Part shown: in pieces, positions 1,954 to 2,107 of the stretch
Position numbering within the stretch: position 1 is the stretch's first letter
Layout: each line of letters starts with the position of its first letter
Program-made: the position numbers and the translations under genes
The notes under the pieces: model-generated
The model's database searches: none
What the model saw: the letters and a program-made list of their open reading frames with translations, nothing else
What the model was told of the DNA's origin: nothing
IMG/VR virus record: IMGVR_UViG_2548876854_000015
Span: 1-19,781 of that record
Direction: 5' to 3' (one strand)
Source: a virus
Lineage: Duplodnaviria > Heunggongvirae > Uroviricota > Caudoviricetes
Length of the DNA stretch: 19,781 bases

Positions 1954-2028
1954 TGGAGCGGGTAGCGGGAATCGAACCCGCATCATCAGCTTGGAAGGCT
2001 GAGGTAATAGCCATTATACGATACCCGC
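1954..2028 (-). tRNA. tRNA-Gly (anticodon UCC), CCA encoded
   Basis: Reverse complement GCGGGTATCGTATAATGGCTATTACCTCAGCCTTCCAAGCTGATGATGCGGGTTCGATTCCCGCTACCCGCTCCA folds by hand into a cloverleaf: 7-bp acceptor stem, anticodon stem TCAGC/GCTGA with loop CTTCCAA, T-arm GCGGG-TTCGATT-CCCGC. Close to host glyT from memory. Confidence 0.85.
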
Positions 2029-2031
2029 ATA

Positions 2032-2107
2032 TGGTGCCGACTACCGGAATCGAACTGGTGACCTACTGATTACAAGTCAGTTGCTCTACCTACTGAGCTA
2101 AGTCGGC
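2032..2107 (-). tRNA. tRNA-Thr (anticodon UGU), CCA encoded
   Basis: Reverse complement GCCGACTTAGCTCAGTAGGTAGAGCAACTGACTTGTAATCAGTAGGTCACCAGTTCGATTCCGGTAGTCGGCACCA: acceptor GCCGACT/AGTCGGC, D-stem GCTC/GAGC, anticodon stem ACTGA/TCAGT with loop CTTGTAA. The T-stem has one A.C mismatch. Sits 3 nt upstream of tRNA-Gly. Confidence 0.75.

Follow-up and report, generated by a model that had tools for sequence, protein, structure and literature searches.

The carriage of tRNA genes downstream of the antiterminator gene Q is textbook cargo of lambdoid phages, and several such units have been described. One example is the unit of the Stx2a phage 933W, in which pT-ileZ-argN-argO are located between pR'-tR' and stx2; in the 933W record, a pR' overlapping the end of Q is followed by qut, terminators, pT, ileZ and two more tRNA genes, and a terminator, with ileZ beginning 9 nt after pT, which is annotated as 'putative tRNA promoter'. 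In an Stx2a phage, a primary transcription start site has been mapped experimentally for the tRNAs (PMC7547250). Another example is phage 21, also lambdoid, which encodes a tRNA-Thr(UGU) in the region downstream of Q (PMC3636060; PMC12445682). A third example is the tandem tRNA-Asn(GUU)-tRNA-Thr(UGU), found after Q in SfI, Sf6, ST64T, and PS3, for which an ACA bias has been reported (17.3 vs. 7.1 per 1000), along with an argument, made for SfI, that tRNA-Thr(UGU) downstream of Q supplies codon-reading capacity (PMC3636060). A recent argument against codon supply holds that defense evasion is the main reason for phages to carry tRNAs (PMC12445682).

The locus described here encodes a tRNA-Thr(UGU)/tRNA-Gly(UCC) pair, in a stretch of DNA of 19,781 nt (hereafter, the window) that is matched at 100% identity in Escherichia coli MEI003 (NZ_CP071263.1), where it is an intact Rac-like prophage integrated beside ttcA. 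The prophage encodes, in this order, intR, xisR, ralR, recT, recE, kilR, sieB, racR, ydaS-V, hok, DUF1367, YbcO, a DUF1133 Q-like gene, the two tRNA genes, essD, rrrD, and an Rz-like gene, after which come trkG, the structural genes, and a cargo of type III effectors. The features of the region between the Q-like gene and the lysis genes are, in the order of transcription:

2461-3003, minus strand: Q-like antiterminator gene (DUF1133; Pfam DUF1133, 1.2e-107; Phage_antitermQ, 27.1 bits vs. a cut-off of 26)
2436-2464, minus strand: candidate late promoter PR', TTGATT-N17-TTCAAT, overlapping the Q stop codon (read from the sequence)
2343-2381, minus strand: intrinsic terminator, candidate tR', preceding the tRNA promoter, with a terminator-like hairpin at 2350-2381 (terminator scan; fold)
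2171-2198, minus strand: predicted sigma-70 promoter of the tRNA unit, TTGCGA-N16-TATCAT, counterpart of the 933W pT (promoter scan)
2111-2163, minus strand: leader hairpin, 53 nt, starting at about +1 (fold)
2032-2107, minus strand: tRNA-Thr(UGU), 76 nt, with encoded CCA, identical to K-12 thrU (ARAGORN; Rfam, 73.8 bits; RefSeq and GenBank annotation)
2029-2031, minus strand: spacer TAT, 3 nt, between tRNA-Thr and tRNA-Gly (sequence)
1954-2028, minus strand: tRNA-Gly(UCC), 75 nt, CCA encoded, differing from glyT by a compensatory exchange of C6:G67 for U6:A67 (ARAGORN; Rfam, 65.6 bits)
1820-1953, minus strand: structured trailer ending in an intrinsic terminator (terminator scan; fold of -43.6 kcal/mol, z = -3.0)
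462-1174, minus strand: lysis genes, downstream of the tRNAs (Pfam; RefSeq annotation)
959-1174, minus strand: S21-type holin gene essD (Pfam; RefSeq annotation)
462-959, minus strand: lysozyme/endolysin gene rrrD (Pfam; RefSeq annotation)

The tRNA pair, the Q-like gene, and the holin and endolysin genes thus share one strand. The Phage_antitermQ match of the Q-like protein is weak yet above the Pfam threshold, and the gene is labeled 'antitermination protein Q' in the phage record ON470595.1. As in the lambdoid cargo units of the pT type, Q/pR'-tR' precede the tRNA unit on the late strand, and the lysis genes follow it. This is the classic cargo ('moron') position, as Rac-SA53 carries toxin genes, eplBA, at the equivalent site.

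A number of further observations were made in the same prophage. A full-length RalA antitoxin RNA adjoins ralR (18047-18225, minus strand; Rfam, 215 bits), and a sok antitoxin RNA is present beside hok (4508-4683, minus strand; Rfam, 119 bits). Two overlapping ORFs (4941-5873 and 5870-6424, both plus strand), encoding proteins of 310 and 184 aa, are flanked by hok and the replication genes and are oriented opposite to the early-right operon; Pfam and PADLOC searches returned no match for either protein, and the pair may represent uncharacterized accessory cargo. Between the tRNA unit and the holin gene, two terminator-like hairpins are convergent (1515-1538, plus strand, and 1570-1589, minus strand). 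Convergent prophage sRNA pairs (anti-sRNAs) were reportedly described at the equivalent position by Tree et al. in 2014. Homology to anti-sRNAs of the AsxR/AgvB type was rejected by a blastn comparison of the region between Q and holin with 933W, in which only generic tRNA similarity was found. Beyond the window, in sequences of the same prophage (L001 26024-28311, L135 9940-14199), the gene for the terminase large subunit, annotated without its N-terminus, overlaps at its 5' end with an HNH endonuclease gene of the opposite strand. The effector cargo at the prophage end includes NleG, a HECT E3 ligase, and NleC; ACA makes up 49% of the Thr codons in these genes, which are also GGA-rich.

As to the tRNA genes themselves, ARAGORN recognizes exactly two in the window, and Rfam model RF00005 scores tRNA-Thr at 73.8 bits (E = 8.7e-15) and tRNA-Gly at 65.6 bits (E = 1.6e-12), both cloverleaves passing the gathering score of 29. 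The coordinates, strand, anticodons, 3-nt spacing, and encoded CCA ends proposed from the sequence-only reading were all reproduced, as was the closeness of the Gly gene to host glyT. The tRNA-Gly gene matches K-12 glyT at 73 of 75 positions, and the exceptions, C6T and G67A, together form a compensatory pair in the acceptor stem (C6:G67 to U6:A67); tRNA-Thr is identical to K-12 thrU over all of its 76 positions. Identity positions are kept in both genes; the GlyRS identity elements are 1:72, 2:71, 3:70, U73, C35, and C36, and position 6:67 is not among them. The same early reading had pointed to an A.C mismatch in the T-stem of tRNA-Thr. The mismatch (A52.C62) is indeed present, according to both the Rfam alignment and the pairing script, but it is neither an anomaly nor a sign of decay because it is native to the identical host gene, and a pseudogene assignment is rejected on the same grounds. 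The only other non-standard pair is U13.U22 in tRNA-Gly, likewise found in the functional host gene, and neither gene has the broken stems, odd loops, or low score of a tRNA pseudogene. The PGAP annotation of the identical DNA in NZ_CP071263.1 lists tRNA-Thr and tRNA-Gly with no pseudogene flag on either, and ON470595.1 labels them tRNA-Thr-TGT and tRNA-Gly-TCC, so that both genes are already part of the public annotation (RefSeq, GenBank). Two intact elongator tRNA genes of host origin are the basis of the explanation that we prefer, captured tRNA genes in a unit of their own that would supply codon-reading capacity, and we hold this explanation as a whole with somewhat better than even confidence.

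When compared with the known units, the locus resembles that of 933W most in its layout. Both follow Q, pR', and terminators (candidates in the window), both precede cargo and lysis genes, and both consist of tightly packed tRNA genes with a terminator, predicted in the window, after them. In 933W, the dedicated promoter pT is about 9 nt before the first tRNA, and its counterpart in the window would be the putative sigma-70 site. In contrast, the 933W set is Ile/Arg/Arg, as opposed to Thr(UGU) and Gly(UCC), a leader hairpin takes the place of ileZ-argN in the window, and there is no similarity in the intergenic sequences. The SfI/Sf6/ST64T/PS3 tandem is alike in being a pair that follows Q and includes Thr(UGU) (PMC3636060), but the partner there is Asn and the spacer 8 nt, while in the window the partner is Gly and the spacer 3 nt. 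Phage 21 shares the anticodon and the region, but its tRNA-Thr21, from the published description, has a shortened anticodon stem and altered cleavage-site pairs, while the gene in the window equals thrU, which gave little or no protection (PMC12445682).

The sequence-only reading had assigned the pair to the late leader. The position on the late strand, between Q and the lysis genes, stands, but the pair also has a conserved promoter-like site and a terminator of its own, downstream of the likely PR'-tR', and it appears to form a small unit nested in the late region, made up of a promoter, a leader hairpin, two tRNAs, and a terminator. The assignment of PR' would follow from analogy: the 933W pR' occupies the equivalent position, and the block GCTTGATTnTTTACGCA is conserved in Rac-SA53, whose Q is only 74% identical. 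The possibility that the tRNAs have no promoter of their own, and are made only from PR' after Q antitermination, agrees with their late-strand location, after Q and before the holin gene, and the promoter call itself matches the consensus at only 9 of 12 positions, with such matches in the region no more frequent than expected by chance (3 vs. 3.5). However, all cassette architectures have a TTGnnn-N16/17-TAWYAT site whose distance to the first transcribed element downstream is 6-9 nt, and both the -35/-10 spacing and this distance are kept despite the highly diverged upstream sequences. Further, the unit is present behind different Q types, a strong terminator-like hairpin separates it from the end of Q, and 933W has its annotated pT, along with the mapped start site in an Stx2a phage (PMC7547250), all of which makes transcription from PR' alone rather unlikely, in our view. 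By analogy with 933W, the unit with its own promoter would be autonomous and probably constitutive, and it would also be read through by the Q-modified polymerase. At its downstream end, a hairpin followed by U7 at 1870-1820, conserved with covariation, is the predicted terminator, and a terminator-like site is found within 150 nt after the tRNAs in 79 of 126 loci.

Two further elements of the unit, the leader hairpin and the trailer, are conserved. The leader hairpin, directly 5' of tRNA-Thr and present in all two-tRNA cassettes, starts with a stem of 6 bp (GGUUCY/RGAACC), continues with a tandem G.A/A.G that is nearly invariant, and then forms a second stem. Its architecture is the same in 24 of 24 distinct variants, with 87% of cells paired and with six pairs changing on both sides, a number matched by 2 of 500 shuffles, which gives modest covariation support. 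In a pattern scan for this hairpin, a Thr-like tRNA came after 82 of the hits; the remaining 42 hits were mostly chance matches in coding DNA, along with a few Thr variants missed by the filter and two hairpin-trailer units devoid of tRNAs. In these two loci (L005 2434-2494, L084 7151-7209), a second copy of the promoter and leader hairpin is not followed by a tRNA gene, and the trailer motif (GGCACTGGCGC...) is found 24 nt after the hairpin; thus the hairpin-trailer unit also exists without tRNAs. The trailer is multi-branched, with an invariant closing helix (GGCACUG/CAGUGCU plus U7) that encloses three hairpins, and the consensus fold of 14 diverse variants retains the closing helix, while the inner hairpins covary. 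The trailer might give rise to a free RNA of 3'-spacer origin. With permissive settings, an Rfam search of 1150-2500 recovered only the two tRNAs and sub-threshold noise, leaving leader and trailer unmatched. Several identities were considered for the leader hairpin and dropped. A role in Q recognition was rejected, as the hairpin accompanies a DUF1133 Q in 23 loci and is also present in 22 loci that lack this Q. A K-turn was dropped on a reading of the sequence, as its register leaves three nucleotides unpaired, a hammerhead core was dropped as residues U4 and GAA are not conserved, and a lambda boxB was dropped as the boxB 3' arm is absent.

The source of the two tRNA genes, as opposed to the rest of the unit, can be traced to the host operon thrU-tyrU-glyT-thrT-tufB, in which the order and the orientation of Thr and Gly are the same as in the window, but in which tyrU, a 116-nt spacer, and thrT are additionally present. 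The flanks, promoter, leader, and trailer in the window are unrelated to the host operon. The junction in the window, CACCAT|ATGCGGG, compared with CACCAT|CAAG...CCAGG|ATGCGGG in the host, is compatible with a precise removal of tyrU and a spacer from a host-like thrU-tyrU-glyT arrangement, although, at only 3 nt, this is weak evidence. The exact copy of thrU and the near copy of glyT were probably taken from an operon of this type, with tyrU lost afterwards. In the host, the thrU/glyT locus is single (a median of 1 place per genome), and thrU is the only tRNA reading ACA.

The cassette is widely distributed. A 301-nt query comprising leader, tRNAs, and trailer is covered to at least 80% in 196 of 5,426 complete E. 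coli genomes, and a 61-nt query specific to the junction is covered to the same extent in 877 of them (16%). The fused Thr-TAT-Gly pattern is also found in more than 120 IMG/VR contigs, with diverged flanks, and in genomes of E. coli, Shigella flexneri, E. ruysiae, Citrobacter braakii, and Enterobacter hormaechei, and the TAT spacer is identical in 127 of 133 related loci. With ARAGORN applied to the flanks, three main architectures are seen: Thr-Gly alone (57 loci), Met(cat)-Lys(ttt)-Thr-Gly (36 loci), and Met(cat)-Arg(tct)-Thr-Gly (18 loci), along with degenerate variants in several loci. The 'Met(cat)' gene of the larger cassettes is identical to the 933W ileZ at 75 of 76 positions, and the second gene of the four-gene cassettes is argN-like (approximately 79% identity). 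The pair had originally been set apart from the Ile/Arg/Arg set of the Stx-type phages. While the two sets do differ, they are not unrelated: because ileZ and an argN-like gene precede Thr-Gly in 54 or more related loci, they represent modular variants at one locus. Across L009, L010, L053, L007, L103, and 933W (L138 1706-1782), the argN-like second tRNA varies in its anticodon, with UCG in 933W and elsewhere UCU, UUU, or a loop shortened to 5-6 nt, impossible as a normal anticodon loop. Some thrU-like bodies also carry other anticodons, possibly as a result of anticodon switches: L073 and L117 have UUU (Lys), and the more diverged body of L163 has UAU (Ile).

The allelic variation among these cassettes bears on whether they are maintained. 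The Thr genes equal thrU in 71 of 130 cassettes, and the Gly genes equal glyT in 63 of 130. The Thr changes are located mainly in the D-loop, and the changes in the Gly stems nearly always keep the pairing (U6:A67, U6.G67, A48:U64, G.U), with the 6:67 states being C:G in 72 loci, U:A in 53, U.G in 4, and U.C in 1; from these sequence comparisons, this pattern indicates purifying selection on tRNA function. The host-identical sequences could alternatively mean that the capture was recent and that the genes are non-functional passengers, silent or decaying host DNA that was captured and serves no selected role. With the same fused junction recurring in hundreds of E. coli genomes, in other genera, and in viral contigs, with stem changes mostly compensatory, and with promoter, leader, and terminator conserved, we consider this highly improbable.

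What the function may be was approached through the codon usage of the annotated genes of the complete prophage, compared with a sample of 42 K-12 genes. The respective frequencies, per 1000 codons, are:

ACA: early genes 18.4, late structural genes 15.9, host sample 5.4
GGA: early genes 15.2, late structural genes 16.7, host sample 6.0

Both codons are therefore infrequent in the E. coli gene sample, as had been assumed, and approximately three times more common in the prophage genes (Fisher p of 1e-10 to 1e-15). They rank fourth and fifth of 61 codons in the late/host ratio, just behind AGG, AGA, and AUA, for which the larger cassettes carry Arg(UCU) and ileZ genes; these three are enriched more than ACA and GGA, yet the phage in the window encodes no matching tRNA. 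GGG and ACG are likewise enriched in the prophage, and the two tRNAs also read these codons by wobble (cmo5U34, mnm5U34). The three lysis genes directly downstream of the unit are not GGA-rich. The original suggestion was one of codon supplementation for the late genes; the enrichment is real, but codon supply, while plausible, is not late-specific, since ACA and GGA are as strongly enriched in the early genes. As the enrichment also follows the lower GC3 of the prophage, it may be a by-product of composition instead of a selective reason for carrying the tRNAs.

A different function, counter-defense, would have the phage tRNA-Thr(UGU), possibly along with tRNA-Gly, replace host tRNAs hit by immune effectors, with phage 21 against P2-OLD as the model. 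P2-OLD kills by cutting the host tRNA-ThrU, amputating its anticodon arm at paired CNG motifs (Govande et al., 2025), and phage tRNA-Thr(UGU) genes, including that of the lambdoid phage 21, rescue the cells (PMC12445682). The targets of PARIS AriB are Lys(UUU), Thr(UGU), and Asn(GUU) (PMC12409363), the isoacceptors encoded beside Q in lambdoid phages, Lys-Thr in cassettes related to that of the window and Asn-Thr in SfI, and the toxSAS FaRel2 selects tRNA-Gly and tRNA-Thr together (PMC11559606). However, the tRNA-Thr in the window, while it has the UGU anticodon, is thrU, the real substrate: the paired motifs C28-U29-G30 and C40-A41-G42 are intact by the published criterion (PMC12445682), A37 is present, and the anticodon stem has its full 5 bp, from A27-U43 to A31-U39, so that a nuclease-resistant allele of the phage 21 type (tRNA-Thr6/tRNA-Thr21) is rejected. 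Overexpressed host tRNA-ThrU affords little or no protection, resistance requiring both motif alteration and stem shortening (PMC12445682), and the host anticodon arm is retained in 123 of 131 cassettes. As to tRNA-Gly, its 6:67 change is outside the FaRel2 determinants (base pairs 1, 2, 4, and 5; PMC11559606). Five related loci (L010, L015, L030, L032, L120) do carry a recurrent G42U/C with U43C, by which the CAG motif is altered and two basal anticodon-stem pairs are lost, the kinds of change reported for P2-OLD resistance. For the host-identical allele in the window, counter-defense is unlikely, and as a general explanation of the unit we give it a small chance.

We give just as small a chance to a joint reading, in which the unit does more than supply codon-reading capacity: the tRNAs would buffer against tRNA-targeting immunity and, at the same time, the leader hairpin and the trailer would be functional RNAs themselves. 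The effectors might be P2-OLD and PARIS AriB in the case of Thr, and toxins that read the acceptor stem in the case of Gly and Thr. This reading would assume a constitutive, host-identical tRNA-Thr(UGU) and U6:A67 tRNA-Gly, in the lysogen or in the induced phage, and the hairpin and trailer might, for example, provide a stable leader RNA, or an sRNA or sponge from the 3' spacer. In the codon-supply explanation, no part falls to the leader hairpin and its conserved tandem G.A.

Overall, the explanation that we consider the probable one, though with considerable room for doubt, is that of a host-derived tRNA unit with a promoter of its own that gives a codon or dosage benefit. Two host-derived tRNA genes make up a small cargo unit at the usual insertion site, which PR'-tR' and the lysis genes flank. 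Their transcript would start at the sigma-70 promoter (2198-2171) with the 53-nt hairpin, continue through tRNA-Thr, the 3-nt spacer, and tRNA-Gly, and end at the structured terminator (about 1820), and RNase P and 3' exonucleases would free both tRNAs; we infer these steps of promoter use, termination, and processing. In the lysogen, the unit would double the gene dosage of the only tRNAs reading ACA and GGA, and upon induction, prophage replication and Q-dependent read-through should raise the dosage further. As the likely benefit, ACA (along with ACG and ACU) and GGA and GGG would be decoded faster in the early, late, and cargo genes.

In conclusion, the original observation was correct and ordinary, with an interpretation that was right in part, the pair being a member of a well-known class of lambdoid prophage cargo. 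The Thr-Gly cassette is common in E. coli, and with its Thr gene equal to thrU, the substrate of P2-OLD and PARIS, in most copies, it presents a counter-example to phage tRNAs being mainly nuclease-resistant variants and favors a dosage or codon-supply role for this cassette family. The U6:A67 variant of the Gly gene provides a natural barcode, relative to host glyT, for the expression of the prophage tRNA, and the conserved leader hairpin and trailer represent undescribed RNA elements.
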